Assembly: GCA_038328415.1 (NCBI GenBank)
Contig: JBBQMA010000001.1
Coordinates: 1 to 37,152 of the forward strand
Direction: 5' to 3'
Source: Chitinophagales bacterium
GTDB taxonomy: Bacteria > Bacteroidota > Bacteroidia > Chitinophagales > Saprospiraceae
Length of the DNA stretch: 37,152 nucleotides
Both the position numbers and the translations under genes were made by a program. How positions within the stretch are numbered: position 1 is the first letter of the stretch; each line of letters begins with the position of its first letter. Under the pieces are notes generated by a model. It was not told the origin of the DNA and ran no database searches. It saw only the letters and a program-made list of their open reading frames with translations. Below are positions 2-33,240 of the stretch, one piece after another.

Positions 2-1981
2 GATACCCGATTTGATCACGCCATGGATATTCAGTCATTGGGATTGGCCCCTGGTGATCAGGTTTCTTATTATTTTGAAGTGTGGGACAATGATGCTATC
101 AATGGCAGAAAATCGTCCCGCTCGCAAGTCATGCAATTTGCCAAGCCAAGTGCTGAAGCGCTGGATGCCAAAGAGAAAATGAATAATGAGCAGATCAAGG
201 ACAATCTGAAAAAGGCCCTTGAGGAGTCGAAAAAAATTCAAAAAGACTTACAAAAGCTTTCAGAAAAGTTACTTCAGGAAAAGAATCTGGATTGGCAGCA
301 ACGAAAGGAAATGGAGAAGTTGTTGAATCGACGAAAGGAGTTGCAGGAAGAGATTCAAAAATCAAAAGACCTTTTCGATCAAAACCTTCGCGAGCAGGAA
401 GAATTCTCCAAACCCAGCCAAGAACTTCTTAAAAAACAGGAAAAGGTACAAGAGATGTTTGAAGAGATGCTGAGCGAGGAAATGAAGGAAATGCTCAAGC
501 AAATGGAAGAAATGCTTCAAAATCTGGACAAGGAAAAAAGCCTTGAAAAGTTAGAGGAGATGAAAATGGATGAAGAGCAACTTAGCAAGGAGCTCGATCG
601 GATGATGGAGATGTTTAAGGAACTTGAATTAGAAAAAGACATCCAGGAGCAATTGGACAAACTGAATGAATTGGCCAAGGACCAAGAAAACCTAGCTGAA
701 AAAACAGAGAACAAGGAGCTTTCTCAGGAGGAGCTTCAGAAGAAGCAGGATGAATTGAACGACAAATTTGACGATGTCCAAGAAAAAATGAAGGACATCC
801 AAAAGCGAAATGAAGAGCTAGAAAGCCCAAAGGAATTAGGTGATCCGGAGGAGAAGATGGATGAAATTGATGAGGATATGAAGGATTCCAGTGATGAGTT
901 GGAAAAGGGCCAAAACGGAAAAGCATCTAAATCTCAAAAAAGTGCGGCTCAGAAGATGAAAGATGCTGCCAAGGCCATGGAGATGAATATGCAGGCAGGA
1001 GAGGAAGAGCAAATGGAGGAAGACATGAAGGCGCTGCGTCAGTTACTGGAAAACCTGGTTACCTTATCTTTTGAGCAGGAAAATCTTATTGCAGATGTTG
1101 GAAAGACGTCAGAAGCAGCACCCCGATATGTGCAATTGGTGCAGGTACAGAAAAAATTGCAGGATGATTTCAAACTTGTAGAGGACAGTCTCCATGCATT
1201 GAGCAAGCGCAACATGCAAATCGAATCCTTCATAACGGAGAAGGTAACAGAGATAAAAGGGAATATGAAGCGATCGGTCAATGATCTGGAGGAACGTCAG
1301 AAAAATACAGCTGCTGTTGATCAGCAATTCTCGATGAAAAATCTGAATGACCTAGCATTGATGTTAAGTGAAGTCATGAACCAGATGCAACAGCAGATGG
1401 CAAATATGAAGGCGGGTGACCAGAACTGTAAAAAACCGGGAGGCAATAAACCTAGTGGTGGAAAACCTTCGGATAAGATGGGGCAGGGGCAGAAGTCCTT
1501 GAATCAGATTATGAAGGACATGCAGGAACGAATGAAAAACGGCCAGGGTGGAAGTAGTAAGCAGTTTGCACAGATGGCAGCAAAACAGGCGGTTATGCGA
1601 AAAGCACTGGAGGAGTTGGCCAAAGATAAAAGACAAAGTGGCAAGCCAGATAAAGAGCTACAGGATATCATCGACCAGATGGACAAAACGGAGATTGACC
1701 TAGTAAATAAAAGGCTAAACTCAGAGACCATGAAGCGCCAGGAGGACATCCTAAAGAGGCTGCTGGACCATGAAAAGGCAGAGCGCGAGCGCGATCAGGA
1801 AGAAAAAAGACGTTCAGAGACCGCTACCCAATACGAGCGCAAAATGCCACCCAGTCTGGAAGAATATTTACGTAAACGAGAAGCTGAACTTGAACTATAC
1901 CGTACGGTTTCCCCCAATCTGAAGCCTTATTACAAGAATTTGGTCGAAGAATACCACCGAAACCTGAAAAATATCAGGTAG
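2..1981 (+). CDS. K/E/Q-rich coiled-coil protein, C-terminal part (5'-truncated by window edge); possibly a DUF4175-like large Bacteroidota protein
   Basis: The frame is open from nt 2 with no upstream stop. The first in-frame ATG is at 23 and the stop is at 1979-1981. A short beta-like segment (GDQVSYYFEVWDNDAINGRK) is followed by about 600 aa of low-complexity heptad-like K/E/Q/M sequence. The family name is from memory only. Confidence 0.6.
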   Translation, partial: DTRFDHAMDIQSLGLAPGDQVSYYFEVWDNDAINGRKSSRSQVMQFAKPSAEALDAKEKMNNEQIKDNLKKALEESKKIQKDLQKLSEKLLQEKNLDWQQRKEMEKLLNRRKELQEEIQKSKDLFDQNLREQEEFSKPSQELLKKQEKVQEMFEEMLSEEMKEMLKQMEEMLQNLDKEKSLEKLEEMKMDEEQLSKELDRMMEMFKELELEKDIQEQLDKLNELAKDQENLAEKTENKELSQEELQKKQDELNDKFDDVQEKMKDIQKRNEELESPKELGDPEEKMDEIDEDMKDSSDELEKGQNGKASKSQKSAAQKMKDAAKAMEMNMQAGEEEQMEEDMKALRQLLENLVTLSFEQENLIADVGKTSEAAPRYVQLVQVQKKLQDDFKLVEDSLHALSKRNMQIESFITEKVTEIKGNMKRSVNDLEERQKNTAAVDQQFSMKNLNDLALMLSEVMNQMQQQMANMKAGDQNCKKPGGNKPSGGKPSDKMGQGQKSLNQIMKDMQERMKNGQGGSSKQFAQMAAKQAVMRKALEELAKDKRQSGKPDKELQDIIDQMDKTEIDLVNKRLNSETMKRQEDILKRLLDHEKAERERDQEEKRRSETATQYERKMPPSLEEYLRKREAELELYRTVSPNLKPYYKNLVEEYHRNLKNIR

Positions 1982-3166: not shown

Positions 3167-3616
3167 ATGCGCATTCTGGTTTTAGTCGGAATATTCGTCT
3201 TTCTTAATGTATCGCCAAATCAGGTCCAGGCGCAGCCGGTAAATATGTGGCATGTATTTGAAAAGGTTAACTTTAGAGATGCATATATAAAAGAATTCAA
3301 AGATATTTTGCCCGTTCCTGATTTTGACACAACGATCAAAGCGTGGGAGGGAAAGGAAATAAGTCTTACCGGATATGTGATTCCGGCAACGGAGGCCCCG
3401 GGCTTTGAATGGATTGTCCTATCTCGTTTTACGTTTGCCAATTGTTTTTTTTGTGGGAAGGCCGGCGTAGAGAGTATCGCTGAAATTCAATTCAAAGGGA
3501 AACGCCCGTTTTTTAAAATGGATAAAACATACACCTTCAAGGGGCGTTTAAAATTAAATAAAGATGACTGGAACCATTTACATTTCATCTTAGTAGATGC
3601 AAAACTGGTAAAATGA
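3167..3616 (+). CDS. Secreted hypothetical protein with CFFCG motif (paralogue of 7334..7789)
   Basis: It has an N-terminal signal peptide (MRILVLVGIFVFLNVSPNQVQAQ). Blocks shared with the 7334..7789 product are G-K/Q-x-I-x-L-x-G-Y-x-I-P, CFFCGxAGxE and KGxLxLNxxDxNxL. A DUF3299-like architecture is only a guess. Confidence 0.6.
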   Translation: MRILVLVGIFVFLNVSPNQVQAQPVNMWHVFEKVNFRDAYIKEFKDILPVPDFDTTIKAWEGKEISLTGYVIPATEAPGFEWIVLSRFTFANCFFCGKAGVESIAEIQFKGKRPFFKMDKTYTFKGRLKLNKDDWNHLHFILVDAKLVK

Positions 3617-7869: not shown

Positions 7870-8382
7870 TTACCTCGGCTTTTCAAACATGGCGAACCAG
7901 CCATATCTGAAGAGGACCAGCAGGATGATAAGGATGATGATAACAATATAGAAGGGGAGATAGGTAAACGCAATGATATGGGTACGGTCAATGGCCCACA
8001 TCAGGATAAGTACTACAAAAACCATTATCAGCAAGCCTGCAATTTTGCCAAAGCCTGGCACTTTGTCTAAAGGTGTATTCCAGCGGATCAGCCAAAAAGT
8101 GAGCACCATAGAAAGTATAGGCAAAACCTGAATGTAGATGTCCGTATCAAGTATACTGCGTCGTTCAAACAACCAGAAATAAAGTGTCAGAACTATGGCA
8201 AACATTCCCGGTACAGCAGCCAGGTAAACCAGAGCGCTGTAGAGATACTTCCAAGGCGAAAGGTGTCCTTCTGCCTGGCCCAGGATACCGGCTAGGAGTG
8301 CAGTCAATGGCACGACCAGGTAAAAGCCGATGAGCAGGATTGGATTTTGTCCAATGAGGGTGAAAAAGTCACCAAGGGTCAT
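7870..8382 (-). CDS. Integral membrane protein, unknown function
   Basis: 170 aa made almost entirely of hydrophobic helices, about 5 predicted by eye. It begins 9 nt downstream of the sucB stop on the same strand. Confidence 0.55.
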   Translation of the reverse strand: MTLGDFFTLIGQNPILLIGFYLVVPLTALLAGILGQAEGHLSPWKYLYSALVYLAAVPGMFAIVLTLYFWLFERRSILDTDIYIQVLPILSMVLTFWLIRWNTPLDKVPGFGKIAGLLIMVFVVLILMWAIDRTHIIAFTYLPFYIVIIILIILLVLFRYGWFAMFEKPR

Positions 8383-9713: not shown

Positions 9714-10622
9714 TCAGTGGCCGTCTGGTTCCACGTTTTGCCGGTTTTTTAATTTGTTTCGAAATATACTAATTTGTCCTGGCTTCTTTTTAGTTCCTTC
9801 ACTAGCTATAAACAGATCTCCCTTCTGATTGAAAGCAATGCCCTCCGGTTGTGGGAACATGGTTGGATCCAAGGCAAAGATATGCTTACAAAAACCACCA
9901 TTATTAAAAACCAATAAAACTTTGCCCCTATGGCTGAGCATATAAACTTCTCTTGTTTCCGGGTGAACGGCGATAGCGGAAGGGCCAAGAGGAAATTGAT
10001 CGGGCGTCTTCTTAAGCCAGGCCATGATGCGTTTTTTACCCGATTTATTTAGCTGCTTGCGAGCAACGGCGATAAACTGCTCTTTATCAATTCCCACCAC
10101 CTTAGAATCGAGAATACCAGTGCCAGGATCGTAATAAAGCCATCCTTTAATGGAATTATTCGTTAATAATGGATCATCCTTGACGGCAATAAGTAATTTT
10201 TTCAAAACCGGATCCCAACCTAGTCCTTCAAGGTCGACCCCTTTTCGAGAAAGAATAGGAATAGGAGTTACTTCTTCGTTAGGTCCGTTGAGCCAGAGGG
10301 ATTGAAACAGGACACCATCACTGCGTAATACGAATAAGACCGAATCTGCAACTTCAATCCCTTCAAAATCACCTTTGCCTGCCAACGGCCAGGTCTTTTT
10401 TATTTGACCCGTTTCCGGATCAATTCCAAAGACAATACCTTTTTCATCTTGTATGGCCAGTAACCATGAATCTTGATCAGCGAAACATAAGCCAGAAATC
10501 TCTTTTAATGAAACGGGCAAGGGCCACCTCAAATCTGGCATGGAAAGATCATAGGCTTGTCCGTGAGCAGGACTAAACGAGAAGAATAACAACAATACGA
10601 CTATAAAGAGGGATTTGATCAT
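9714..10622 (-). CDS. Exported beta-propeller protein, SdiA-regulated/YjiK-like
   Basis: The signal peptide is MIKSLFIVVLLLFFSFSPAHGQ. It has the EISGL motif followed by repeated D-x-x-G/EGI blocks (AIQDEKGIVFGIDPETG, GDFEGIEV, DLEGLGWD, PEGIAF), as in the YjiK family. The start overlaps the upstream stop (TAATG). Confidence 0.55.
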   Translation of the reverse strand: MIKSLFIVVLLLFFSFSPAHGQAYDLSMPDLRWPLPVSLKEISGLCFADQDSWLLAIQDEKGIVFGIDPETGQIKKTWPLAGKGDFEGIEVADSVLFVLRSDGVLFQSLWLNGPNEEVTPIPILSRKGVDLEGLGWDPVLKKLLIAVKDDPLLTNNSIKGWLYYDPGTGILDSKVVGIDKEQFIAVARKQLNKSGKKRIMAWLKKTPDQFPLGPSAIAVHPETREVYMLSHRGKVLLVFNNGGFCKHIFALDPTMFPQPEGIAFNQKGDLFIASEGTKKKPGQISIFRNKLKNRQNVEPDGH

Positions 10623-13600
10623 TAGGAAAGTTGTTTTAATCTATGCAACATTTGGATATGTGGCGTCAACTTCACACCCTTTTGGTACAAATCACGTGCT
10701 ATGATTCGCGCTTTCATGTTCTTAGTTGAAAGCCAGAGCAGATAATTAGCCTCCGCCTGAGTCCATAAATCTGAACTATCTAAACGGGCACTTTCCAGCG
10801 CTTCCAATTTTTCCTGTTCAGAAAGTAAGTGGAGCCTTAAACGCTTCCACTGACCGGTGAGCAAAGGATCTTCCCAAATGATTACATCTGGTTCAGCAAA
10901 AGACAAACATTTTTTTGCTTCTTCAAAATTCTTCTGTTTGATAAACAATGCTGCCAATTCAAGGTATGCTGTCGCTACGAGTTTCCGATTGCCTATTTCT
11001 TTAGCTACATTGAGTGCCTCGGCGATATAAATGGCTGAGGTAGGATAGTCATCCTGCCAGCAGCGTGATTGCGCAAGACCTAATAACGCTTTTATGATTC
11101 CTTTCTTGTAGCCCATAGTTCTTCCTATAGACAGCGCATTAAAAAGCAATGACTCTCCGTTTGTCCATTGACCAAGTTTAATTTCAAGACTACCCAGTAG
11201 TTCAAGGGCTATAGATTCCCCCTGTGGGTCGCCTAACTCTATGGCAAGGGCAAGATCAGTTTCAAAGTCCTTGCGAGCACTATTCCAGTCTCCGGTGTTT
11301 TGCAAAGCTAAGCCTCTAGTCCCAAGGGCTATACTCATCCAAAGTTTGTTTGAAAATGTTTGGGCGAGGTTGTAGCCCTTATGTAAATTCGTTAAGGCTT
11401 TACCATATTTGCCCATCTCATTCTGTATGACACCGAGATTAATGTAAAGTGAAATAAGTGATTGATTTTCACCTGTCTGGTGTCGAAGCATTAATTCATT
11501 AAAGACCAACTGTTCTGCTTCCTGATACCTGCCTTGATTCATTCGTATGAGTGAAAGGTTCATGACTAAACCATTATCCTTTTGATGGTCTGCCTTTAAT
11601 AGTTTAAACGTTTGAGTGATGTAGTTTTCGGCCAACACATATTCACCCTTTCTAAAATGTAAAACAGAAAGGTCCCGAGTACACCCTGCCATACCTTCAT
11701 TATTGTCCATAGATTTAAAGGTTTCATAACTGTCATTTAATACAATGGCAGCCTCCTTATATTTTCCTGAGAGTGTCAAAATATGTCCCTTAAGTGACAA
11801 TTGTTGTGCTTTGAGTAGAGGTGTTATTTTTTCGTTGAAGACGGGATCTTCCAATTCATGGAAAGCTAGTTCCCATTGACCTAGTGCAACACGTGCCGGA
11901 ATGCCATCAATAATTATGGACATTTTAACTGGTGATGTTGCTGCCAGTATGAGTGCTTTTTCAAAGAAGTCGAGTGCTTCACGATTCTGGTATTGCGACA
12001 ATGCAAACTGACCAGCTATTTGGAAATAAAATGCTGCTTGTTCAGGCAGTCCAGCCTCCTGGCAGTGAAGGGCCAACTCTGCCGCATAAATTTCCAGGTT
12101 ACGCCCGTAAAGCACTTCCATCGTTTCAATAACAAGCCTGTGGTATTTTTTAAGCTTTGAATGCATTTGTACCTCCAGGATCACTTCGCGAAGAAGACCA
12201 TGGCGGAAGAAATATATTTGATCTTCACCGGCATATACAATTTCTGCAGCTTCGGCCTTTTGCAGCATACTTTCCATTCCGTCAGCTTTGCCAACTACCA
12301 CCTTGAGAAGTTCATTGAGAAGTAATTGGTCAAAGTGTTGACCAATTACAGCCGCCAGGGTCAACATTTCTTTGACCAAAATGTCCAGTTGGTCTAATCG
12401 GGCAAGCAAAATATCTCTCAATGATCCACCTAGCTTTATGTCTTTATCGGAGGTTATGGCGAGTCCCTGCTCATTGGTTTGAATCAAGTTTTTACTCCGC
12501 AAATAATACAAAAACTGTTCGCCGTAGAATGGGTTTCCATTTGCTGCTTGTTGAAGGCTTTCAACGAGATGTGAGTCAGGGGTCTGGTGGAGTATACTCG
12601 TTGCGAGCTGCGCCATCCCTTCATTAGACAACGGAGGTAATTTCAACAATTTATGCTGATCAGGTTGTATCGCATTTAGTTCAATAATTGGTTCTCGGGT
12701 TGTGATAAGGAGTTCAATGACCTGTCGATTAACCAGCCTTATTAAGAGTTCGCGGGAAGCATAATCCAGATCAGGCCAATGTTCAATCCAAATTCCTACA
12801 GGCTGATTGAACGTCTTTTGTTGGAGAAGGCCTTCATGAATATTGGTTATTTGGTCAAAACGTTCTTTAATAGGCAAATCAGTATTTGATCGAATACGTT
12901 CTAAATTATCTAATGCTAAAATTATACGTTCCTTACCGGACTGGCTCGCATTGTTTCGCCAAGCTATTTCAAGATCTTCAAAGGGTGCCGTGCGCATCTG
13001 ATGTGCATCCACGTTTAGCCAAAAAAAATGATGCGCCATCAATTGAGTCAGCTTCCGGGCCGTAAATGACTTTCCTACACCAGGCTCACCCGTTATTTCA
13101 AGGCAAGTTCCACGGGAAGACAAATACATATCCCGAAACGGGAAAAGAAACGCTGGTGAGCGATAATAGCAATCATCCTTATCAGAGGGTATCTGAAAAG
13201 AATGTAGGGAATAGATTTGAACTGGTTCAGCAAAACCTTTTGCCTTGATTAAACCTAGGTCTTCCTTAACCATAGAATACTGAGATATGGTGAGTTCATC
13301 TGAGCGAATCTCGCCATATGCAGCATTTAAAGCAAAGCGGGCGGCCAGATTGATGGACCTTCCAGCCACAATATATTGGCGGCGGTGATCATCACCTGCT
13401 ATACCACAAAATGCAGGGCCCGACGAGATCCCAAATCGCAATGAAAGATTTGACGGTGCAAAATGGTCCCTGATTGCGAAAGCCGAGTCGATAGTGGCTT
13501 TGCGGGAGTCACCCATATTAACCGGTGCCCCAAAAAAGGCAACGAATAACCCACCTTTATCTGTAAAATCAACTTCTTTGAAATAGCCATCCCGGCGTTC

Positions 13601-14350
13601 GATCTCTGCACAAGAAAACCCCAGGAATTCATCTAAGGCAATTTTGTCCAAATCGCCAGGGAAAGAAATAAAAAGACTAGTGACGGTCCGGAATTCGCCA
13701 CTATGGAACCGACCACTTAGGGAATCGGGATAAAACAAGTGAGCATTTGGGGTTGGGATTGGTTTAGCATTAGAAACATAAGACGATACAATCGGTGTCA
13801 ATCGAAAATAACCATCTTCCGGGAGTGCCTCATACGTAGAAGTTTCCGTCAGATCGGCGATGGCTTGCGAAATACAAATTTCATTCGGACCTGCATGCTC
13901 TTCTGAGCCAACTGCATCCGCAATGCCAGCACCACGTATATACCACCTGCGGGGATGATCCCTTGTAATATGCCATTCCAGACTACCTGCCCCAATGCCT
14001 ATCCGAAGCGGAATATCAATAGCAAGTTGAAGAAGTTTTTGCCGAATTTCATTAGCGGCATGAATAGCCTGGTCAATTCTATTTTTCCCAAAAAAAACCC
14101 CGGTAAACGCATCTCCAGCAAAGTAGGGGATGAATCCATCTCTAGTATGAATAGATGCTGAAGCTGCACAAAACACATCATTCAACATTCCGGAAAGTAA
14201 TTCGGCACCTACATTGCCCTTTGATAGCAACTTTTCGGTGTACCCGGTAAACCCCTGAAGATCAGCAAAAATGATGACCGCCTGCAAGAGGCCATCATGG
14301 TTATCCTGCGCAATTTGTTGATCAATAAAATTTGGAATAAATCCTTGCAC
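10622..14350 (-). CDS. Multidomain signalling protein: two tandem class III adenylate/guanylate cyclase-homology domains + STAND/AAA_16 P-loop NTPase + TPR repeats
   Basis: CHD1 spans about aa 22-165 (IIFADLQGFT, YFAGDAF, LRIGIGAGS). CHD2 spans about aa 219-385 (LFISFPGD, FFGAP, LRFGISSGPAFCG, GRSINLAARF). Walker A is GEPGVGKS at aa 421-428 (nt 13067-13090), and Walker B-like is RIILALDNLE. The C-terminal half has many TPR signatures (YQNREALDFFEKAL, GKYKEAAIVL, GRYQEAEQLV, GKYGKALTNL, GDWNSARKDF, KNFEEAKKCL). The start is GTG at 14350, and no in-frame ATG lies before the first cyclase core. Confidence 0.85.
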   Translation of the reverse strand: MQGFIPNFIDQQIAQDNHDGLLQAVIIFADLQGFTGYTEKLLSKGNVGAELLSGMLNDVFCAASASIHTRDGFIPYFAGDAFTGVFFGKNRIDQAIHAANEIRQKLLQLAIDIPLRIGIGAGSLEWHITRDHPRRWYIRGAGIADAVGSEEHAGPNEICISQAIADLTETSTYEALPEDGYFRLTPIVSSYVSNAKPIPTPNAHLFYPDSLSGRFHSGEFRTVTSLFISFPGDLDKIALDEFLGFSCAEIERRDGYFKEVDFTDKGGLFVAFFGAPVNMGDSRKATIDSAFAIRDHFAPSNLSLRFGISSGPAFCGIAGDDHRRQYIVAGRSINLAARFALNAAYGEIRSDELTISQYSMVKEDLGLIKAKGFAEPVQIYSLHSFQIPSDKDDCYYRSPAFLFPFRDMYLSSRGTCLEITGEPGVGKSFTARKLTQLMAHHFFWLNVDAHQMRTAPFEDLEIAWRNNASQSGKERIILALDNLERIRSNTDLPIKERFDQITNIHEGLLQQKTFNQPVGIWIEHWPDLDYASRELLIRLVNRQVIELLITTREPIIELNAIQPDQHKLLKLPPLSNEGMAQLATSILHQTPDSHLVESLQQAANGNPFYGEQFLYYLRSKNLIQTNEQGLAITSDKDIKLGGSLRDILLARLDQLDILVKEMLTLAAVIGQHFDQLLLNELLKVVVGKADGMESMLQKAEAAEIVYAGEDQIYFFRHGLLREVILEVQMHSKLKKYHRLVIETMEVLYGRNLEIYAAELALHCQEAGLPEQAAFYFQIAGQFALSQYQNREALDFFEKALILAATSPVKMSIIIDGIPARVALGQWELAFHELEDPVFNEKITPLLKAQQLSLKGHILTLSGKYKEAAIVLNDSYETFKSMDNNEGMAGCTRDLSVLHFRKGEYVLAENYITQTFKLLKADHQKDNGLVMNLSLIRMNQGRYQEAEQLVFNELMLRHQTGENQSLISLYINLGVIQNEMGKYGKALTNLHKGYNLAQTFSNKLWMSIALGTRGLALQNTGDWNSARKDFETDLALAIELGDPQGESIALELLGSLEIKLGQWTNGESLLFNALSIGRTMGYKKGIIKALLGLAQSRCWQDDYPTSAIYIAEALNVAKEIGNRKLVATAYLELAALFIKQKNFEEAKKCLSFAEPDVIIWEDPLLTGQWKRLRLHLLSEQEKLEALESARLDSSDLWTQAEANYLLWLSTKNMKARIIARDLYQKGVKLTPHIQMLHRLKQLS

Positions 14351-14529: not shown

Positions 14530-15264
14530 TTAGTTGACGGCGCAAATCCTACGAACTACTTTATAGATCCGTGTGTATTCGTTGATTTCTTCTTCAAACG
14601 GATCATGCTCCAGATGGTTGGCTGATATCAGACGCAACTGACGGATACGCCCTTTTCGATCAGGTATTTTCTGAACATATTTTACCCAAATCGCTCCATT
14701 TGATTTAACGGCATAAATATCGTTGTCCCTGATTTTTTCAACTGAATCTAGGGACTTACAAATAACGATGTCATCATCATTGATTACTGGTTCCATGCTA
14801 TTTCCCTTTATGGGAAAGGAAACAAAGTCTTTGCCTGCCAACCCAGGGATATGAAAAAAATCAAGGTCCTCTTTATCGAAGCTATCAGCTCCAATTGTCG
14901 ATCCGGCAAAAGCCTGCGTTGTTGTGAAAAGGATATTGTTTGAGGTATTTCGTAATGGCTGGGCGGATTGATACCCAGGTTCAATACCAAACGGGGACCC
15001 TTTCCCATAGAGCATCCAATTCTGATTAACACCAAATTCTTTACAGAGTATTTGGGCGTGGTGGTAATCTATGACCCTTCGGTCATCGCGATTCAAAAAT
15101 GCGCGAATGATATGTCCGTATGTTCTATTACCCAGGATCTGCTCGGCAAAATCCCCCATCCCTCTTCCATCGCGGTCGTTTTTCACTATGACGCCTCTGG
15201 CTTCAAGAATGTCAAATACTTTAATAAACCGCTCATTGAGCTTTATTCGATCCTTAGTAATCAT
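14530..15264 (-). CDS. CI/LexA-type repressor: N-terminal phage-CI-like DNA-binding domain + C-terminal S24 autopeptidase
   Basis: The C-terminal S24 core is IKGNSMEP with Ser156, and a Lys lies in AIWVKYV (Lys195). Ala-Gly dipeptides occur in the linker (QAFAGS at aa 120-121; GLAGK). The N-terminal 90 aa resemble the phage CI repressor HTH family (FAEQILGNRTYGHIIRAF...NQNWMLYGKG). Confidence 0.8.
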   Translation of the reverse strand: MITKDRIKLNERFIKVFDILEARGVIVKNDRDGRGMGDFAEQILGNRTYGHIIRAFLNRDDRRVIDYHHAQILCKEFGVNQNWMLYGKGSPFGIEPGYQSAQPLRNTSNNILFTTTQAFAGSTIGADSFDKEDLDFFHIPGLAGKDFVSFPIKGNSMEPVINDDDIVICKSLDSVEKIRDNDIYAVKSNGAIWVKYVQKIPDRKGRIRQLRLISANHLEHDPFEEEINEYTRIYKVVRRICAVN

Positions 15265-15569: not shown

Positions 15570-17141
15570 TTATCGGATATGCACCAACGCATGTGTAAGT
15601 TGTCTGGAAGGCGTACGTAAGTGTGCGAAATAATTTCCTGGAGGAAGATTACTGCCATCCAGGGTAACTTCAAATCGTCCAATTTCTAGATAGCGGTCTA
15701 TCAAGACTTTTAATTCATAACCGGAGGAATTGAACACACTAAGGTAGATACGTTCGCCATTGCTTGAAAACGTAATTCTGGTGCTGCCGGAGAATGGATT
15801 TGGAGCGTTGGTCAATTCATTATTCACCTGAAGTGAGCCACCATTTTGATCAGTTGAGGTTGTTTCGCAACCTTCAATGACCGCTATCTCTGAAAAATCA
15901 CTATACAGCAATGTTTGAACATCCTCTAAGGGTAATTCAAACCATTGTTTAAGTAAAGACCCATAAACAGACCGGAAATCAAACTGCATGGCCACCCCTT
16001 CTTGTTCATCAACGGTGTCATTGATGGTAGGATTATTACCTAAGATGCCCGGCTTGACACAAGAACCAAATATGAAAAGAGGTGCAGCAGAACCGTGGTC
16101 AGTGCCATTAGCACCGTTAGAACGAATCCGTCGACCAAATTCGGAAAAAGTCATTCCGACAACGCGTTGATCCAGCTTTTGCAAAATTAAATCATTTTGG
16201 AATAGACCAATAGCTTCAGATAGGGTAGCCATGAGATTAGCATGTCCGCCAGTTGTTGTGTCCGTGGTGTCGACTTGGTTGGCATGTGTATCAAATCCAC
16301 CAAGACTGGCTACATAAATACGTGTCTTTAAGCCACCTGAAATGAGAAGTGCGATGGTTTTTAGCTGTTGGGCAAGCCGGTTGGTTGCAGGGTAGGTAAC
16401 CAGATTGGTTCCTTTAGTTGCTGCTTCAGTTATGACGGTTCCATAGGCATTTGTCTGTGCTATTGCTGTTCGTACAAAATTTACTTCTTTGCCATAACAG
16501 ACTGTTGGATCTGTATTGTTATCGTCATCTTCCAAAAGCGGTGATATACCAAAAGGGTCCTCCAGCGCCAATGAATAGTTGGCAGCAAATCCCTGACAAG
16601 TTTCGGAAATGATTGAACCAACAGTTATAGCGAATGGATCTGGATACTGGGTATTGGGATATCCTTCAGGATAATCCATAACATAGGAGTCAAAAAATCG
16701 TCCTGCCCATCCGGTGTTTATCACTTCATTGGCGGCAGAGCCAGTTTGCCAAATATCAGTTGAACGAAAGTGGGAGCGGTTTTGGTCCGGGTAGCCTACA
16801 TTTTGAATAACGCTAAGTTTACCCTCATCAAAACTTGTTTTAAGATGGGTCATCGAAGGATGCAGGCCTGTTTCCAGCGAAAGTTTTAATGCTTGATTTT
16901 CAGGTATCAGAATATTCTCCCTTGCTGTAAATAAGTTGCTGTATTGATCAAGAGGAAGCACCATATTCAATCCATCATTACCTCCATTAAGCTGGATAAG
17001 GACAAGTACCCGGTCTGAGTTCTGGTTCATCCCATTAAAAAGTGCATGGCGAGAAATGGCAGACAACTTGTTGCCATGAAGGAGAAGGGGCAGCGAAAAT
17101 GAGGCCGCAGCAGTATTTTTTAGGAAAGTTCTTCTTTTCAT
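15570..17141 (-). CDS. DUF1501 family protein (sulfatase/phosphatase-like fold) with Tat signal and T9SS C-terminal sorting domain
   Basis: It has a twin-arginine motif (KRRTFLKNTAAAS) and the DUF1501 blocks LNGGNDGLN, GGFDTHANQ and FSEFGRRIRSNGANGTDHG. The last 80 aa or so (NAPNPFSGSTRITF...LSVFNSSGYELKVL...LPPGNYFAHL) match the type A Por/T9SS CTD pattern. Confidence 0.85.
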   Translation of the reverse strand: MKRRTFLKNTAAASFSLPLLLHGNKLSAISRHALFNGMNQNSDRVLVLIQLNGGNDGLNMVLPLDQYSNLFTARENILIPENQALKLSLETGLHPSMTHLKTSFDEGKLSVIQNVGYPDQNRSHFRSTDIWQTGSAANEVINTGWAGRFFDSYVMDYPEGYPNTQYPDPFAITVGSIISETCQGFAANYSLALEDPFGISPLLEDDDNNTDPTVCYGKEVNFVRTAIAQTNAYGTVITEAATKGTNLVTYPATNRLAQQLKTIALLISGGLKTRIYVASLGGFDTHANQVDTTDTTTGGHANLMATLSEAIGLFQNDLILQKLDQRVVGMTFSEFGRRIRSNGANGTDHGSAAPLFIFGSCVKPGILGNNPTINDTVDEQEGVAMQFDFRSVYGSLLKQWFELPLEDVQTLLYSDFSEIAVIEGCETTSTDQNGGSLQVNNELTNAPNPFSGSTRITFSSNGERIYLSVFNSSGYELKVLIDRYLEIGRFEVTLDGSNLPPGNYFAHLRTPSRQLTHALVHIR

Positions 17142-17165
17142 GAGTGGGTTATTTTTACAGATTGA

Positions 17166-18839
17166 TTAGGACAATTGATATTCGGGCATTTGCATCATTG
17201 TAGCAATCAGGTTCCGTAATTTATTGGAAACGGCGTTGGCCAGATCCGTGTCTGAAGGGTTTGCAAGATGATCAGTATACTCCACGGTCCATTCATAGTC
17301 AGGCAAACCAGGGAGAAGAACTTCCTTTAGGTAGGCCATTTTTTGGGCAGAAATGGGTTTAGGGAAAAGCTGTTTTGCAAATCCTTCGATAAGCGGGTCA
17401 GGTTCAAAAGGGTTTTCCAATGTTGCGACCCAGGTCAAGACAGGAAAAGCAGCAGCAGGATTATTTCCAACCTTTAATCCATTATAAGTCAATGTCTTCA
17501 CCAAATTGGACCGAATAGGAAGTGTTACGGAATTTATCCAGGTCTGATAGAAGGAAGGTTCCTGGTACCAGGCTTTCCAACCCGACACACTGGGGGGGTC
17601 GTAATAAGCCATTTGCATCAGTCCGAAAGAAGGGAAAACCAATGCCCAATAACGGTAATTCAGATTGAGGTTTCCCGGAGCTGACCATCCCGACTGACGG
17701 ATCATGGTCATCGTAAAATCAATAGGATGTTTGATCATTGCACCCAGAATGCATTCCTCGTAAAAATGTGCACTTGATAGTAATGCTTCCAGAGCAGGTG
17801 TTACTTCGTAATCGTTGCTAAGAATCAATTGAGCCAGTGGTTCAATAACTTCTGCCTCTGTCTCCGCATCAATATCGTAATAGACAAACCAGCGATACAA
17901 TTTTCGTGCAATAAATCGGGCGCATTCACTTTTCTGGAAGATTATATCAATAAGATGGGCATATTCCTGATCGCCTAAGTTTGTAATGACTTCATTGTCA
18001 AATCGATGTGATAATGTTTTTGTGCCGGTATCGTGCCTTGCGATCCTAAATTCAGAAGCCACCTCTATAGCTGGATTTTGCGTGTTGTATCCGGTTGTTA
18101 CCCATCCGGTCAGCACTTTTGCCATAGCAAGGACATCATCTTCTGTATAGTTGGTATAATCACCAGGGCCCACTTGTAGGCCTTTGCCTATGGTAAAGAG
18201 TTCCAATAATTCTCGGGCATAATTTTCATTCGGCTTGGTCTTGGTGCTTTGATTGCCATTCAAATACTGCAGCATGGAAGGATCAATGGTGATTCTTTTA
18301 GCTAGTTCCTTGAAATTACCCATGGCGTACTGCCGCAATAGTGAAATGTAAACATATTGGAACTTTGGGTCATTGACCTCTACTCGTGAGGTCACAAAAT
18401 GATTATGCCAAAACAAGGTTAATTTTTCACGAATATTAAAACCACTCTGAATGATTGTGCCCACTGTCCAGGCATATAAAGATGTTATTCGATAGCCTTT
18501 CAAATTAACTACGGCATCATAAGGTGCCTCAATCCATGTTTCACCAAGTGGGACATTTGGATCGTTGGTAGCTTGATGGTTTATCGGAGGGGCAGGCATT
18601 ACCTGGCTTTCAAAGAGTTTGTTTATAGTACCACTCAGTCCGAGATTGACTGATTCCGCAATTTCAGCTTGTGTAGGCCCAAATGTTGTTCTTCGCAGTA
18701 GGTGTGCTGCCGTCTCTGTAGTCCAAGGCCCTAAATAGGGTTCAAGCCCACCATTACCGGAAAAGGTTATTTTATTTAATGTCCTCTTTGTTGCGGTTTT
18801 ACCGGTAAGCAGGACTTCGAGTGTACTTCTTCTATCCAT
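17166..18839 (-). CDS. DUF1800 family protein
   Basis: Characteristic blocks are AAHLLRRTTFGPTQAEI, LFWHNHFVTS, ARELLELFTIGKG and YTEDDVLAMAKVLTGW. It sits 24 nt upstream of the DUF1501 gene on the same strand, which is the classic pairing. Confidence 0.85.
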   Translation of the reverse strand: MDRRSTLEVLLTGKTATKRTLNKITFSGNGGLEPYLGPWTTETAAHLLRRTTFGPTQAEIAESVNLGLSGTINKLFESQVMPAPPINHQATNDPNVPLGETWIEAPYDAVVNLKGYRITSLYAWTVGTIIQSGFNIREKLTLFWHNHFVTSRVEVNDPKFQYVYISLLRQYAMGNFKELAKRITIDPSMLQYLNGNQSTKTKPNENYARELLELFTIGKGLQVGPGDYTNYTEDDVLAMAKVLTGWVTTGYNTQNPAIEVASEFRIARHDTGTKTLSHRFDNEVITNLGDQEYAHLIDIIFQKSECARFIARKLYRWFVYYDIDAETEAEVIEPLAQLILSNDYEVTPALEALLSSAHFYEECILGAMIKHPIDFTMTMIRQSGWSAPGNLNLNYRYWALVFPSFGLMQMAYYDPPSVSGWKAWYQEPSFYQTWINSVTLPIRSNLVKTLTYNGLKVGNNPAAAFPVLTWVATLENPFEPDPLIEGFAKQLFPKPISAQKMAYLKEVLLPGLPDYEWTVEYTDHLANPSDTDLANAVSNKLRNLIATMMQMPEYQLS

Positions 18840-20452: not shown

Positions 20453-21064
20453 TTACTCCCGATACATTTTACAGGTGTCCAGGTAGTGAAAGACGGGATC
20501 AGGTAGCATATAACGCATACTCCGACCTTCGCGCAATCCCTGGCGGATGAACGTAGCTGAAATGTCAAGGAGTGGAGCATCGAAGAACCGGACATTAGGA
20601 TGGTTATCGAAGGCTGTTGATTCTATACCGGGCCGGCGGTATACCAATATGGAATAGTCTCTTAAAAGGATGTCGAAGTTTTTCCATTTGTCCAGAGTTA
20701 CCAGATTATCGCCACCCATAATCAGAAAGAATGAGTCACTGGGATATTTTTCTTTTAAATAAACCAAGGTGTCAACGGTATAAGATGGTTTGGGAAGTCC
20801 AAATTCTATCGATGAAGCATTTAGTTTGGGATTGTCTTCAATGGCGAGGCGAACCAGATGCAAACGATCATGATCCTTCGCAAGGGTTTGTCGTGGTTTT
20901 AATGGATTGTGCGGTGAAACGACAAGCCAAACCTGGTGTAGATTTGCCAATTCGGCCATGTGATTTGCAATAATCAAATGGCCAATGTGAATGGGGTTAA
21001 ACGACCCAAAAAAGAGGCCAATTTTTCTACCTTCCTTAGTCATTGGCTCCATTTTGTTCACCAA
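20453..21064 (-). CDS. nadD: Nicotinate-nucleotide adenylyltransferase
   Basis: It has the nucleotidyltransferase (H/T)xGH motif (GLFFGSFNPIHIGHL) and the C-terminal ISATFIR (ISSTxxR) motif. The real start may be Met8 (nt 21043), which would cut the overlap with the upstream gene from 29 to 8 nt. Confidence 0.9.
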   Translation of the reverse strand: MVNKMEPMTKEGRKIGLFFGSFNPIHIGHLIIANHMAELANLHQVWLVVSPHNPLKPRQTLAKDHDRLHLVRLAIEDNPKLNASSIEFGLPKPSYTVDTLVYLKEKYPSDSFFLIMGGDNLVTLDKWKNFDILLRDYSILVYRRPGIESTAFDNHPNVRFFDAPLLDISATFIRQGLREGRSMRYMLPDPVFHYLDTCKMYRE

Positions 21065-21515
21065 TGCGATCCGGTAAGTCTACTTTCCAGGTTCCATTTA
21101 TCCGCACCACCCGAACGCTATCCAATTGGAGCATATCTTCCCTTTCTTCAGCAAACATACAGAAAGCCGTATCGCCTATTATTTTACATTGAATGCTCTC
21201 GATCTTGGTGAGGGATTCCTTTTCTGAGGGTTCGGAGGAAGCTGCAAGATCTTTTAGTACCCCTACCCATACCTGTGTAGCCGGTGTACTCCACTTTAAA
21301 GCCTCATTGAAACGGCCAAGGTCTAATGCCTGCTGCCAGGCAATGAAGACCTCGTCGGGTATGTTTTCAGGTTCTTTGATAATAATTTGATCTGGCATTT
21401 GATGATCATCGCCATCAGATTTTTCACTATCCGTTTGACAGCCGGCCAGACTGAGGTATACGACAATTATGAAAGCACAGATCAATCCTTTTTGCATGAC
21501 ACAAAAGTAACGCAA
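21036..21515 (-). CDS. Small lipoprotein, unknown function
   Basis: It has a lipobox (VVYLSLAGCQ). The likely start is Met7 (nt 21497). An acidic linker is followed by an alpha+beta domain ending in VVRINGTWKVDLP. I am not confident of any family assignment. Confidence 0.55.
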   Translation of the reverse strand: MRYFCVMQKGLICAFIIVVYLSLAGCQTDSEKSDGDDHQMPDQIIIKEPENIPDEVFIAWQQALDLGRFNEALKWSTPATQVWVGVLKDLAASSEPSEKESLTKIESIQCKIIGDTAFCMFAEEREDMLQLDSVRVVRINGTWKVDLPDRIGEQNGAND

Positions 21516-26024: not shown

Positions 26025-26546
26025 ATGTATTCCGAATTGCGGCCTCACATCATTCGACTGTTGCTACTTGTGTTGCTACAGGTTTTAGTCCTTCGCCAGA
26101 TAATCCCTGGAGATGGATGGTTAAGGCATGGAGAAGTGATCCTTTATCCGCTTTTTATAATGATGCTTCCATTGCGGTGGCATGCTGCATTCATAATAAT
26201 GGGCGCTTTCTTCTGTGGGTTAATAACCGACCTCTTTTATGATACGCCAGGCGTGCATGCGGCTGCATCGACACTAACTGCATTTCTTCGGCCACTTATT
26301 CTACAAATCATCTCGCCCCGATCCGGCTATGACCCTAAGCAACAATTAACCCGGTCTACCTTTGGGCCAAGATGGTTTGCCTTTTATGCAGGTACTTTTT
26401 TGTTAGTGCATATTTTATCACTTCAGATTTTTAACGTCTTTACCTTTTATTATTTTACGGAAATTCTATGGAGGACGCTACTTACCTGGATAATGTCATT
26501 CGGCGTAATCATGCTTCAGGATCTTATATTTAATCCAAAACGATGA
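26025..26546 (+). CDS. mreD: Rod shape-determining protein MreD
   Basis: It is a 173-aa polytopic membrane protein placed between mreC and mrdA. Its stop overlaps the mrdA start (ATGA). The call rests mainly on position. Confidence 0.7.
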   Translation: MYSELRPHIIRLLLLVLLQVLVLRQIIPGDGWLRHGEVILYPLFIMMLPLRWHAAFIIMGAFFCGLITDLFYDTPGVHAAASTLTAFLRPLILQIISPRSGYDPKQQLTRSTFGPRWFAFYAGTFLLVHILSLQIFNVFTFYYFTEILWRTLLTWIMSFGVIMLQDLIFNPKR

Positions 26547-28387: not shown

Positions 28388-28454
28388 GGCGGTAATTATG
28401 CCTTGACACCATCGGAAGGTGAAGAAAACATATCCATCCCTATCTTTGGTGTGC

Positions 28455-29210
28455 ATGATTTACCAGAAACTACTTACAGACGCTCGATTTGGAGAGAAAA
28501 AATTAGCCTTGCTCGTGGACCCGGACAAGCAGCATTCTATTAGCTTATCTGAGCTCGGCCTTTTGGCAGCACAATCCGGCGTTGATTTTATTTTACTGGG
28601 AGGTAGTCTATTGATGAAGGACCAACTTGATGATTGTATCCAGCAACTAAAAACCCAAAGCCAGTTGTCCGTTTTACTTTTCCCTGGCTCCACATGGCAA
28701 ATCAGTCCAATGGCAGACGCGCTTTTATTTCTGAGTCTCATTTCTGGCCGAAACCCGGAACTACTAATAGGTCAGCAGGTTTTGGCGGCCCCTCTGTTGA
28801 AAGACCTTCAGCTAGAAGTCTTGTCTACTGGTTACATGTTGGTCGATGGTGGCAGTGCAACATCCGCATCCTATATGAGCCAGACGATGCCTATTCCAGC
28901 AAATAAGCCTGAAATAGCTGTTGCTACAGCACTGGCAGGAAAGTTTTTAGGTATGCAAATGTTTTATCTGGATGCGGGTTCGGGAGCCGGGCATCCTGTA
29001 CCATTTGAGATGATCAGCGCTGTTCGAAAGGCAACGGAATCTCCTTTATTTGTAGGAGGAGGTATCCGTACCCCTGACCAAGCTGCCCAGGCTGCCTTGG
29101 CTGGCGCTGATATTGTGGTGGTTGGGACGGCAGTGGAGCATGATCCGACAATATTACAGGCACTGTGCCAGGCAGTCCACAGTGCTAATCATATTGCTGA
29201 ATTGTTGTGA
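28455..29210 (+). CDS. Geranylgeranylglyceryl phosphate synthase family prenyltransferase (GGGPS/PcrB)
   Basis: It has TIM-barrel GGGPS/PcrB blocks: LALLVDPDK, ILLGGS, FYLDAGSGAG and LFVGGGIRT. The track start at 28419 is GTG. The ATG at 28455 (MIYQKLL) is more likely. Confidence 0.8.
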   Translation: MIYQKLLTDARFGEKKLALLVDPDKQHSISLSELGLLAAQSGVDFILLGGSLLMKDQLDDCIQQLKTQSQLSVLLFPGSTWQISPMADALLFLSLISGRNPELLIGQQVLAAPLLKDLQLEVLSTGYMLVDGGSATSASYMSQTMPIPANKPEIAVATALAGKFLGMQMFYLDAGSGAGHPVPFEMISAVRKATESPLFVGGGIRTPDQAAQAALAGADIVVVGTAVEHDPTILQALCQAVHSANHIAELL

Positions 29211-30945: not shown

Positions 30946-31869
30946 TTATCCTTCGAGTACCAAATCCGACCAGGAAAAAATAGTCGTAAATCCCTGGCTT
31001 GTCAACCTCTTTTTCATTTCAATGGGATCTTCTTGACTGGCGGCCATAAAAAAATCGCCTCCCCATGCGCCAAGTGGCTTTATTAAACCCGGAAATGCGG
31101 GAGCCCAAGGATTGGGATCCAGGTTCAATAACTTTCCAATCTGCTGATTATGTTCACTTAACAATCGGATAAATGTATCCATGTCAGGTGCATCTTCAAT
31201 CTGCTGGGTTAAAGTTGAAATAGCTTGAATATCCGATGCAGAAACCTTTTTTAAGGAATTGGAATGGGAATGGATGGACGCTCTGGAATTTTGTTTCCTT
31301 CCCGACCAAACTAAAAGGAGGTGTTCCTTGAAAGACCAATTTAATGTTACTGGAGTAATCCTGATTTCTTCATCGGTACTCTGGAAAACAATTGGCCCCT
31401 TTGATGTGGCACAGGCGAGGTCATAACCAGAACCGCCAAAAGTCTGTTCAAGCAATGTAAAGGGCTCTGCTTCGCCCCATTCTGCCATTGCATGGACCAA
31501 AGTAGAACTGGCTCCTAACCCCCATTCGGGATTAAATTCAAGTCGGCTTTCGATACTTTGGCCCTTCCAATCGGCAAGAAAATCAGGATTCTGACGTGTA
31601 ATTGCCGTTAAAATCTTTGTAATGCCGGCTGCTATTTCAGGATCAGTAGATTCCTGAGCACTAAAGTCCAATAACGAAAAGACCCCCTTAAACCACTCAC
31701 TGCCATCTGGCCGCAGACTTTTCCAGTGCAGATCAGCTCCACGCATTTTTTTGACATGGACATGTTGCCCTAAACGCAAGGGGACAGCTAAAGCTTCGGC
31801 TCCTCGTAAAACAAGGTACTCACCCGTAATAAGCAGTTTTCCGTGACCGTAGAAGGAAGTTTGGGACAA
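30946..31869 (-). CDS. GYDIA-type GHMP kinase (putative mevalonate-pathway kinase)
   Basis: The N-terminus is GKLLITGEYLVLRGAEALAVP, a GHMP-like motif is GLGASSTLV, and the family-name motif is present as GSGYDLACA. The family description (Bacteroidota, mevalonate context) is recalled from memory. Confidence 0.7.
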   Translation of the reverse strand: MSQTSFYGHGKLLITGEYLVLRGAEALAVPLRLGQHVHVKKMRGADLHWKSLRPDGSEWFKGVFSLLDFSAQESTDPEIAAGITKILTAITRQNPDFLADWKGQSIESRLEFNPEWGLGASSTLVHAMAEWGEAEPFTLLEQTFGGSGYDLACATSKGPIVFQSTDEEIRITPVTLNWSFKEHLLLVWSGRKQNSRASIHSHSNSLKKVSASDIQAISTLTQQIEDAPDMDTFIRLLSEHNQQIGKLLNLDPNPWAPAFPGLIKPLGAWGGDFFMAASQEDPIEMKKRLTSQGFTTIFSWSDLVLEG

Positions 31870-31881
31870 AGGACAGCTTTT

Positions 31882-33240
31882 TTATAATTTCGTCGCTAAG
31901 GTAGTAGCTGCGTGGCGAATGCGCACCAAATAGTCGCGAACACCTTGATAGGTTACTGTTTTATCAGCGAAATGAGCTTTAGTATCTTCTTTTTCCGCCT
32001 CGGAAGCACCAAGTCCCTGCAGGATATTCTTTAGGTGCATTTTCATATGTCCATGCTGGATGCCTGTGGTAATCAGTGATCGCACTGCAGCAAAATTTTG
32101 GGCCAGACCCACAGCTGCTACAATTTGCATTAATTCAGGCGCACCAGGATTTCCAAGCATTTCAAGTGAACGTCGAGCGATGGGGTGCAAAGCAGTCAGG
32201 CCACCTACTGTCCCCAATGCGAGCGGGAGTTCCAACCAAAATCGGAAGGTACCGTTGTCAAGACTGCAATAACTCAAGCTGCGGTATTGACCATCTCTGG
32301 AAGCATAGGTATGCCCGCATGCCTCCACGGCTCTAAAATCGTTGCCGGTAGCAATCACGACAGCATCTACTCCATTGAAAATCCCTTTATTGTGGGTAGT
32401 TGCCCTGTAAGGATCCTGTCGGGCAACACGCACAGCTATCTCGAATTTTTTTGCAAATCCCTGAGGCGTCAAGCCATTAAAACCAGGTCCCAATGATTCA
32501 ATTGGACAAGTCACACTGGCTCTAACCAGACATTGAGGGGTGTAATTAGAAAGGATGGACATGATGATCTGGACCTCCCTTTCTTCAAGTGAAAAAATCG
32601 GATGTGATTCGATGAAGTCAGTTAATGTCTGGGCAAATGATTCCAGTATCGTATTGGTAAAGTTTGCACCCATGGAGTCACAAGTCTGTAGGTCGAGGTC
32701 CAACTGGAAATATCCAGGTTCAATCAGGGGCATTTCCAACAATCGAATGGCTGTAATGCCACCGCCCCGTTGTTCCATATTTGCTGTATGAATAAGTGCA
32801 TTATCCCTCAACAGGACTTCCAACTCAGGAAATACAGTCCGCAATTTATCGGCGGTGCCTTTCCAAATAAAATGCACCTGTCCTTTTTTTATGGTTCCCA
32901 ATACTTCAGTACGAATGCCTCCACGATCCTGCCAAAATTTTGCCGCACTTGAAGCAGCAGCTACAACAGAGCTTTCTTCTGTCACCATTGGAACGCAGTA
33001 GAACCGATCATTTATGCGAAAATTGGGCGAAACGCCAAAGGGAAGTGGAAAATTGCTGATCGTATTCTCACTAAATCCATCTAATATTTTTTGTTGTTCT
33101 TCATTGTGGTGCCAATAGCTGACTAATTCGCGCATCACGGTTTCCGGATCGCGAAAGAAGTGCTCCACAATCCACTTGATTTTGCCCTTTTTAGACAACT
33201 TGGAAAAGCCACTTATTGGTGTTGGTTTAGGTGTACTCAT
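31882..33240 (-). CDS. Class II hydroxymethylglutaryl-CoA reductase
   Basis: Class II motifs are ENTISNFPLPFG (ENxIG-like), TCDSMGANFTN (DAMGxN), LALGTVGG (GTxGG) and the C-terminal catalytic His region IQHGHMKMHLKN. Confidence 0.9.
   Translation of the reverse strand: MSTPKPTPISGFSKLSKKGKIKWIVEHFFRDPETVMRELVSYWHHNEEQQKILDGFSENTISNFPLPFGVSPNFRINDRFYCVPMVTEESSVVAAASSAAKFWQDRGGIRTEVLGTIKKGQVHFIWKGTADKLRTVFPELEVLLRDNALIHTANMEQRGGGITAIRLLEMPLIEPGYFQLDLDLQTCDSMGANFTNTILESFAQTLTDFIESHPIFSLEEREVQIIMSILSNYTPQCLVRASVTCPIESLGPGFNGLTPQGFAKKFEIAVRVARQDPYRATTHNKGIFNGVDAVVIATGNDFRAVEACGHTYASRDGQYRSLSYCSLDNGTFRFWLELPLALGTVGGLTALHPIARRSLEMLGNPGAPELMQIVAAVGLAQNFAAVRSLITTGIQHGHMKMHLKNILQGLGASEAEKEDTKAHFADKTVTYQGVRDYLVRIRHAATTLATKL

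Follow-up and report, generated by a model that had tools for sequence, protein, structure and literature searches.

A protein that joins two nucleotide cyclase-like domains to a P-loop ATPase module and a long helical-repeat array raises the question of whether it is an unfamiliar signaling switch or the bacterial form of a known enzyme. Such a protein is encoded on the reverse strand of a 37,152-nt stretch of DNA from a Chitinophagales bacterium of the family Saprospiraceae (assembly GCA_038328415.1, contig JBBQMA010000001.1, positions 1 to 37,152). We refer to the whole of this stretch as the window; the cyclase open reading frame (ORF) within it is the feature under study. A preliminary description, made from the sequence alone, read the ORF as a tandem cyclase with reciprocally degenerate active sites, fused to a STAND NTPase and to tetratricopeptide repeats (TPRs). 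Our computational analysis points to a cytosolic bacterial (Saprospiraceae-type) enzyme that resembles soluble adenylyl cyclase (sAC; human ADCY10), in which a C1-C2 core formed in cis would produce cAMP under the control of a MalT-clade STAND-TPR module; we put the probability of this reading at about 0.8.

Full-length mammalian sAC (sACfl) is described as the catalytic domains C1 and C2 followed by an autoinhibitory motif and by a P-loop domain predicted to be of the STAND type (PMC12802110; PMC6023465), and sACs are operationally defined by two catalytic domains, the lack of a transmembrane segment, and a P-loop NTPase domain (PMC6660944). Bacterial sACs that carry an NTPase domain were described by Kobayashi, Buck & Levin (2004), as cited in PMC6660944.

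An sAC-like tandem cyclase core

A phmmer search of the PDB with the single protein sequence returns human ADCY10 first (e.g., 4CLF, E = 1.3e-13), with two colinear stretches in which query residues 23–174 match sAC C1 and residues 248–354 match sAC C2. A family profile built from 72 members covers sAC residues 37–470 in a single alignment (E = 1e-67, 232 bits), whereas all other cyclases score 1e-34 or weaker, among them CyaB (1e-34), CyaC (5e-30), and AC8 (6e-26). The AlphaFold2 (AF2) model of residues 1–405 has a mean predicted local distance difference test score (pLDDT) of 92.1 and a predicted template-modeling score (pTM) of 0.89. When this model is compared with the PDB using Foldseek, every one of the best 24 matches is a catalytic core of human sAC, matched over both domains; the superpositions cover ~445 columns with query-normalized template-modeling scores (TMq) of 0.76–0.81 and a root-mean-square deviation of ~4 Å. 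The soluble domains of AC9, AC8, and AC5 come next, and single cyclase homology domains (CHDs) span only half of the model. Because the best fold matches are sAC cores over both domains, the two domains are predicted to pack head-to-tail in cis, as they do in sAC, and the superposition of the AF2 model on sAC crystal structures over both domains is in keeping with the packing that the preliminary description had anticipated. The comparator chosen there, mammalian membrane adenylyl cyclase, gives way to sAC, which is closer by both profile and fold.

The active-site residues are divided between the two domains. Domain 1 keeps the metal-binding residues D30 (in IIFADLQGFT, residues 26–35) and D80 (in YFAGDAF, 76–82) and is degenerate at the Asn and Arg positions, which hold A144 and G148 (in GIADAVGSEE, 142–151). 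Domain 2 has S229 (in LFISFPGD, 226–233) and F269 (in DKGGLFVAFFGAP, 264–276) at the metal positions and keeps N334 and R338 (in SINLAARF, 332–339) together with K371. The metal Asp pair is thus confined to domain 1, and the Asn/Arg pair and the base-recognizing Lys, K265, to domain 2; the domain 1 equivalent of that Lys is Y76, and the positions of A144 and G148 vary among homologues. Direct alignment of the two domains with hhalign (probability 95%, E = 3e-8) pairs D30 with S229, A144 with N334, and G148 with R338. The reciprocal loss noticed at the outset, of Asn/Arg in one domain and of the Asp pair in the other, is therefore borne out by the sAC alignment, by hhalign, and by the AF2 superposition. 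Together with the profile and fold matches, these comparisons support a predicted intramolecular pseudo-heterodimer of the C1/C2 type, in which one site is catalytically complete and the other pocket is degenerate.

Seven catalytic residues, D30, D80, K265, R323, N334, R338, and K371, are invariant in 64 full-length homologues that are 29–72% identical to the protein, and in 143 wider representatives their conservation is 96% or higher. At the Asn/Arg-equivalent positions of domain 1 the homologues drift freely, and the first metal position of domain 2 is Ser or Ala in the close homologues. A conserved catalytic set beside drifting dead-pocket positions is the signature that selection on catalysis would leave in an alignment. 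An exhaustive search of 1.84 billion representatives returned 595 proteins at E ≤ 1e-30, and nearly all of the best 150 of these align over both domains, which lie at the N terminus of proteins of ~1,200–1,450 aa. The closest homologue is 72% identical and comes from a Saprospiraceae metagenome-assembled genome with identical synteny; the closest homologues carry the NCBI name "tetratricopeptide repeat protein" and no more. Most of the more distant bacterial relatives join just one CHD, itself complete, to the same STAND-TPR chassis, and the tandem form is a minority.

Catalytic residues and the likely product

With the roles of sAC residues taken from PMC12867704 (Table 1) and PMC12250328, D30 and D80 correspond to the metal ligands D47 and D99 of the human enzyme, R116 to K144 (the pyrophosphate, PPi, "receptor"), K265 to K334 (which recognizes the ATP base), I327 to T405 (which contacts adenine), N334 to N412 (the class III Asn position, with a role in product release), R338 to R416 (which contacts the α-phosphate), and Y76 and V147 to the bicarbonate ligands K95 and R176. 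The position of R134 in domain 1 is basic (Lys, His, or Arg) in most relatives. On our reading this residue is presumably the counterpart of R484 of the transmembrane adenylyl cyclases (tmACs), and we take K371, the invariant Lys of a KG motif, to be the equivalent of tmAC K1065.

The preliminary description had found no canonical Lys at the first specificity position and had placed a Thr of domain 2 there. That alignment was out of register by two residues: the true Lys position lies two residues downstream of the Thr that was chosen and holds the invariant K265, opposite sAC K334 in the alignment. The Ile reported at the second specificity position of domain 2 was correctly assigned. It is Ile327 (13370..13372, − strand), at the place of sAC T405, where the close subfamily has Ala, Ile, or Val and where 77 of the 143 wider representatives have Thr, as in sAC; it is a lineage-specific change in the predicted base-binding pocket. 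The guanine-type Glu/Cys pair is absent. Because K265 is invariant and aligned with sAC K334, conversion of ATP to cAMP is the most likely reaction, and the earlier caution against taking the product to be cAMP is not supported, given this Lys and a second position that is mostly Thr in the wider family.

The bicarbonate ligands of sAC are not preserved. Across the family the position of K95 holds Tyr, His, Thr, Gly, or Ser and that of R176 holds Ala, Val, Ser, or Thr, with neither Lys nor Arg found at either. Non-mammalian sACs also lack the K95 and R176 residues and are not regulated by bicarbonate (PMC12867704). The missing residues argue against bicarbonate control and not against membership in the sAC group; bicarbonate sensing through a site of the sAC type was rejected on the strength of the replacements Y76 and V147. 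Two residues of domain 1 are well kept among the 64 homologues, Tyr76 (14123..14125, − strand; 58 of 64), at the K95 position, and Arg139 (within 13931..13951, − strand; 60 of 64), which adjoins the position that corresponds in domain 1 to the second specificity residue. The pair probably line the degenerate pocket, where they could form a different, putative site for a regulatory ligand.

The STAND-TPR module

C-terminal to the cyclase domains, the protein carries a Walker A motif (GEPGVGKS, residues 421–428), a Walker B motif (GIWIE, 519–523) with a single acidic residue, E523, followed by HW, a sensor-1 Arg (R552, in TTREP), a GNPFY motif (605–609), and a winged-helix His (H717, in FFRHGLL). 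Across the homologue alignment, conservation of the Walker A and Walker B motifs, the sensor-1 Arg, and the winged-helix His is complete or reaches at least 90%. The AF2 model of residues 396–1242 (pLDDT 92.3, pTM 0.85) shows a nucleotide-binding domain, a helical domain, and a winged-helix domain, with a sensor of helical repeats after them. By fold, the model matches PH0952 best (6MFV; E = 1.2e-13, 698 columns, target-normalized template-modeling score 0.61), and further matches are Avs3, Apaf-1, and the TPRs of LGN/Pins. Among NCBIfam models, the TOMM kinase/cyclase fusion and AfsR match in part. With a MalT-clade protein as the best fold match and the motifs conserved, the assignment of a STAND NTPase and a TPR sensor to the region after the cyclases stands.

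Gene layout and genomic context

The ORF runs where the preliminary description had placed it, and every motif quoted there carries the residue number then given to it. The domain boundaries and the immediate neighbors of the gene are collected in Table 1. The N terminus, MQGFIP or MQGLIP, and the length of the protein are common to the 64 full-length homologues. A Pfam search detects PF00211 in domain 2 only (residues 300–372, E = 1.3e-8), gives a sub-threshold AAA_16/nSTAND3 match around the P-loop, and finds TPR_12 in four stretches together with TPR_1/TPR_2. Domain 1 (residues 17–185) lies below the reach of Pfam-A, which gives no detection there, though the domain is real by its sAC sequence, profile, and fold matches. 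There is no transmembrane segment; the maximum Kyte-Doolittle hydropathy over 19 residues is 1.57 and falls inside a TPR helix.

Table 1. Positions in the window of the cyclase gene, the parts of its product, and the two adjacent genes
Feature	Position	Strand	Remarks
Whole gene, 1242-aa C1-C2-STAND-TPR protein	10622..14350	-	Begins with GTG at 14350; stop codon at 10622-10624
Cyclase homology domain 1 (C1-like, aa ~17-185)	13796..14302	-	D30 at 14261-14263; D80 at 14111-14113
C1-C2 linker (aa 186-217)	13700..13795	-	From the AF2 model; aligns with the sAC linker inside the single profile stretch
Cyclase homology domain 2 (C2-like, aa ~218-386)	13193..13699	-	K265 at 13556-13558; N334 at 13349-13351; R338 at 13337-13339
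STAND nucleotide-binding oligomerization module (aa ~398-728)	12167..13159	-	From Pfam, motifs, and AF2 fold
Arm and TPR-like sensor (aa ~729-1242)	10625..12166	-	All-helical, ~13 helical hairpins; from Pfam TPR, AF2, and fold matches
"SdiA-regulated" (PF06977) domain protein, 302 aa, signal-peptide-like N terminus	9714..10622	-	Downstream, co-operonic; TAATG stop/start overlap
Peptidase_S24 (LexA/CI-like) protein, 244 aa, possibly a regulator	14530..15264	-	Upstream, same strand

The window is an ordinary housekeeping region, with dnaN, mreB/mreC, PBP2, rsgA, ybeY, the E2 subunit of a 2-oxoacid dehydrogenase, lgt, and HMG-CoA reductase, and no defense or mobile genes were found in it. Synteny is vertical within Saprospiraceae and conserved across orthologues that are 39–72% identical. 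Among the members of the ~1,240-aa subfamily that were examined, the "SdiA-regulated" gene lies directly downstream of the cyclase in all six and the S24/LexA-like gene directly upstream in five; the farther flanks of this three-gene neighborhood vary between genomes. The loci examined from a paralogous subfamily of ~1,340 aa show no conserved neighbors, including no conserved effector or protein that binds cyclic nucleoside monophosphates (cNMPs), and no cNMP-binding effector gene is adjacent in any of the nine neighborhoods examined (the window and homologues). Searches of the PDB with the sequences of the two neighboring proteins gave nothing significant. A scan for sigma-70 promoters and terminators around the operon found no more sites than in shuffled sequence, and such a scan would tell little if promoters of Bacteroidota follow a different consensus.

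Several other features of the window may be recorded here. A DUF1800/DUF1501 gene pair (15570..18839, − strand) is syntenic in the genome of the closest homologue, and the C terminus of the DUF1501 protein has a sub-threshold match to Por_Secre_tail, the sorting domain of type IX secretion (23.7 bits against a cut-off of 27). A PcrB-family gene (28419..29210, + strand), similar to geranylgeranylglyceryl phosphate synthase, and the HMG-CoA reductase gene (31882..33240, − strand), which is flanked by ORFs without Pfam matches (30946..31869 and 33252..34307), may belong to an isoprenoid- or mevalonate-related cluster. Four further ORFs have no Pfam match at E ≤ 1e-4 (23..1981, + strand; 3167..3616, + strand; 21036..21515, − strand; 26025..26546, + strand), their sizes falling between 149 and 652 aa. 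A 170-aa ORF (7870..8382, − strand), with no Pfam match at E ≤ 1e-3, keeps its place downstream of the E2 gene in the homologous loci as well.

Comparison with known systems

The protein has two catalytic domains, no transmembrane segment, and a P-loop STAND module C-terminal to C2, the features by which sACs are operationally defined, and its core is nearest to that of sAC. It shares with ADCY10 the order C1, linker, C2, and P-loop STAND NTPase, and the active site is split alike in the two enzymes, with Asp/Asp in C1 and Lys/Asn/Arg in C2. ADCY10 is the best match both by sequence (E = 1e-67) and by fold (template-modeling score ~0.8), and animal C1 fragments are 28–38% identical to members of the bacterial family. 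The long tandem-CHD proteins collected for the comparison include no eukaryotic one. The two proteins differ in that the bacterial one is shorter (1,242 versus ~1,610 aa) and has a clear TPR array at its C terminus, in that neither a heme domain nor the sAC autoinhibitory motif was identified in it, and in that K95, R176, and Thr405 of sAC are Y76, V147, and Ile327 here.

The membrane adenylyl cyclases (ADCY1–9) are likewise pseudo-heterodimers in which a catalytic site is paired with a degenerate one (the forskolin site), they have a Ser at the first metal Asp in C2, and their soluble domains form the second-best fold class (TMq ~0.7). The bacterial protein, in contrast, lacks the membrane domains and the helical/coiled-coil domain, its second specificity residue is not Asp, and in sequence it is far less similar to these enzymes than to sAC (AC8, E = 6e-26 versus 1e-67). 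The single-CHD cyclase-AAA_16(STAND)-TPR proteins (annotated at JGI as "class 3 adenylate cyclase/predicted ATPase/TPR") and the TOMM kinase/cyclase fusion TIGR03903 share the MalT-clade STAND module and the TPRs, with the GNPF and HW-D motifs. They differ in having one complete CHD, which must homodimerize, whereas here the dimer is predicted to be pre-formed in cis. Rv0386, Rv1358, and Rv2488c of Mycobacterium tuberculosis are of the single-CHD cyclase-STAND-TPR type. PH0952 and MalT, for their part, combine a STAND ATPase with a TPR/SUPR sensor, as this protein does, and have DNA-binding or other domains as outputs, with no cyclase. In this class, autoinhibition is lifted when an inducer binds the sensor (PMC6468293).

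The bacterial sAC-like C1-C2-STAND-TPR layout is real and well conserved, but it was known before and does not constitute a novel system. That the entire C1-C2-STAND architecture shares its descent with ADCY10 is a proposal of the literature (Leipe 2004 and Kobayashi 2004, each as cited).

Proposed mechanism

From the features described above we infer that the protein is enzymatically active, what it makes, and in which direction and by what mechanism the STAND module controls it. We propose that a single active site would be assembled from D30, D80, R116, and R134 of C1 and K265, N334, R338, and the phosphate-binding K371 of C2, and that it would convert ATP to cAMP and PPi. The pseudo-symmetric second pocket would be catalytically dead and would lack the bicarbonate ligands of mammalian sAC. 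Presumably the nucleotide-binding oligomerization module (NOD), the arm, and the TPRs hold the enzyme in an ADP-bound, autoinhibited state; binding of a ligand to the TPRs would then lead to nucleotide exchange and to opening or oligomerization. Because the catalytic dimer would be pre-formed in cis, activation by relief of autoinhibition, as brought about by the C terminus of sACfl, is likelier than induced proximity of the cyclase domains. The single-CHD relatives could use induced proximity instead, and in them oligomerization could directly create active sites.

Several points weigh against this sAC-like, cAMP-producing, STAND-controlled enzyme. The sAC-like core could have been fused independently to a MalT-clade STAND module. 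The ~1,240-aa subfamily has a ~40-aa deletion in the NOD (residues ~450–525, ~12776..13000, − strand), and its Walker B region reads IWIE-HW where the ~1,340-aa subfamily and the distant relatives have LELEDxHW; the NOD may therefore hydrolyze ATP weakly or only bind nucleotide. At the second specificity position sAC has Thr and tmACs have Asp; Ile327 agrees with neither, which leaves base selectivity insecure.

Alternative explanations

Divergence of the catalytic core invites two other accounts. The tandem CHDs might be an inactive pseudo-cyclase that serves a STAND regulator as a nucleotide-binding or scaffold module, for which the class III cyclase-like ATP-binding protein of Pseudomonas aeruginosa (6YII, rank 37 among the fold matches) is a precedent, and with which the hydrophobic second specificity position and a domain 1 too diverged for Pfam would agree. 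To this account we give a slim chance: the metal, base-recognizing, and Asn/Arg residues and K371 show little or no variation among hundreds of divergent relatives while the dead-pocket positions drift, and 6YII fits much more poorly than sAC (TMq 0.57 versus 0.8). The core might alternatively be an active cyclase whose product is not cAMP, either cGMP or a promiscuous set, since its specificity pair is Lys/Ile rather than the Lys/Asp of tmACs or the Lys/Thr of sAC, with Ile at position 327 here and Ala, Ile, or Val in the close subfamily. Class III specificity residues are imperfect predictors, as Rv1900c and Rv0386 of M. tuberculosis illustrate. Even so, with K265 invariant and equivalent to the Lys by which sAC recognizes the ATP base, the Glu/Cys-type guanine pair absent, and the wider family mostly Thr, as in sAC, a product other than cAMP has, if anything, a slimmer chance still.

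The STAND-TPR half of the protein suggests a role in conflict or anti-phage defense, along the lines of Avs or Pycsar: a STAND receptor would use its TPRs to sense a phage protein and would then raise an alarm in the form of a cyclic nucleotide, possibly a pyrimidine one. The logic of effector, NOD, and TPR sensor is the same, Avs3 is among the fold matches, Ile327 is non-canonical, and PADLOC profiles for PycC match weakly. These matches are, however, partial (E = 5e-8 at best, to 2e-3) and of the kind that generic cyclase similarity gives, far below the match to sAC at 1e-67, and PADLOC returns no matches for the neighboring genes. The housekeeping region without defense or mobile genes, the vertical synteny in Saprospiraceae down to 39% identity, the lack of an adjacent cNMP-binding effector gene in the nine neighborhoods, and the invariant base-recognizing Lys all speak against it. 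We rejected the defense-system reading, the least probable of those considered here, and with it the Avs-like framing of the preliminary description, in which the ORF was the most system-like novelty of the window. A further proposal starts from the neighbors: the ~1,240-aa subfamily might represent an undescribed three-gene module of S24/LexA-like regulator, cyclase, and translationally coupled secreted "SdiA-regulated" protein, responding to a new ligand at the TPRs, the degenerate pocket (where the conserved Tyr76 and Arg139 stand instead of the bicarbonate ligands), or both, and with a product that is perhaps not cAMP, given the hydrophobic second specificity position. We consider this module unlikely, less so than the alternatives above.

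Significance

The sAC-like C1-C2-STAND-TPR enzyme that we favor reveals no new type of system, and the finding by itself does not show a new second messenger. Its main value lies in better annotation, as the tandem sAC-like nature of a large Bacteroidota family is effectively unannotated. A 2025 study in the Journal of Biological Chemistry found no regulator specific to sACfl. If the three-gene module were real, it would offer a genetically tractable bacterial model for STAND control of a C1-C2 cyclase. More generally, the bacterial homologues are compact, their TPR sensor is clean, their fold is modeled with confidence, and one subfamily has a conserved operon partner; they may become tractable models for the role of the STAND domain in sAC.

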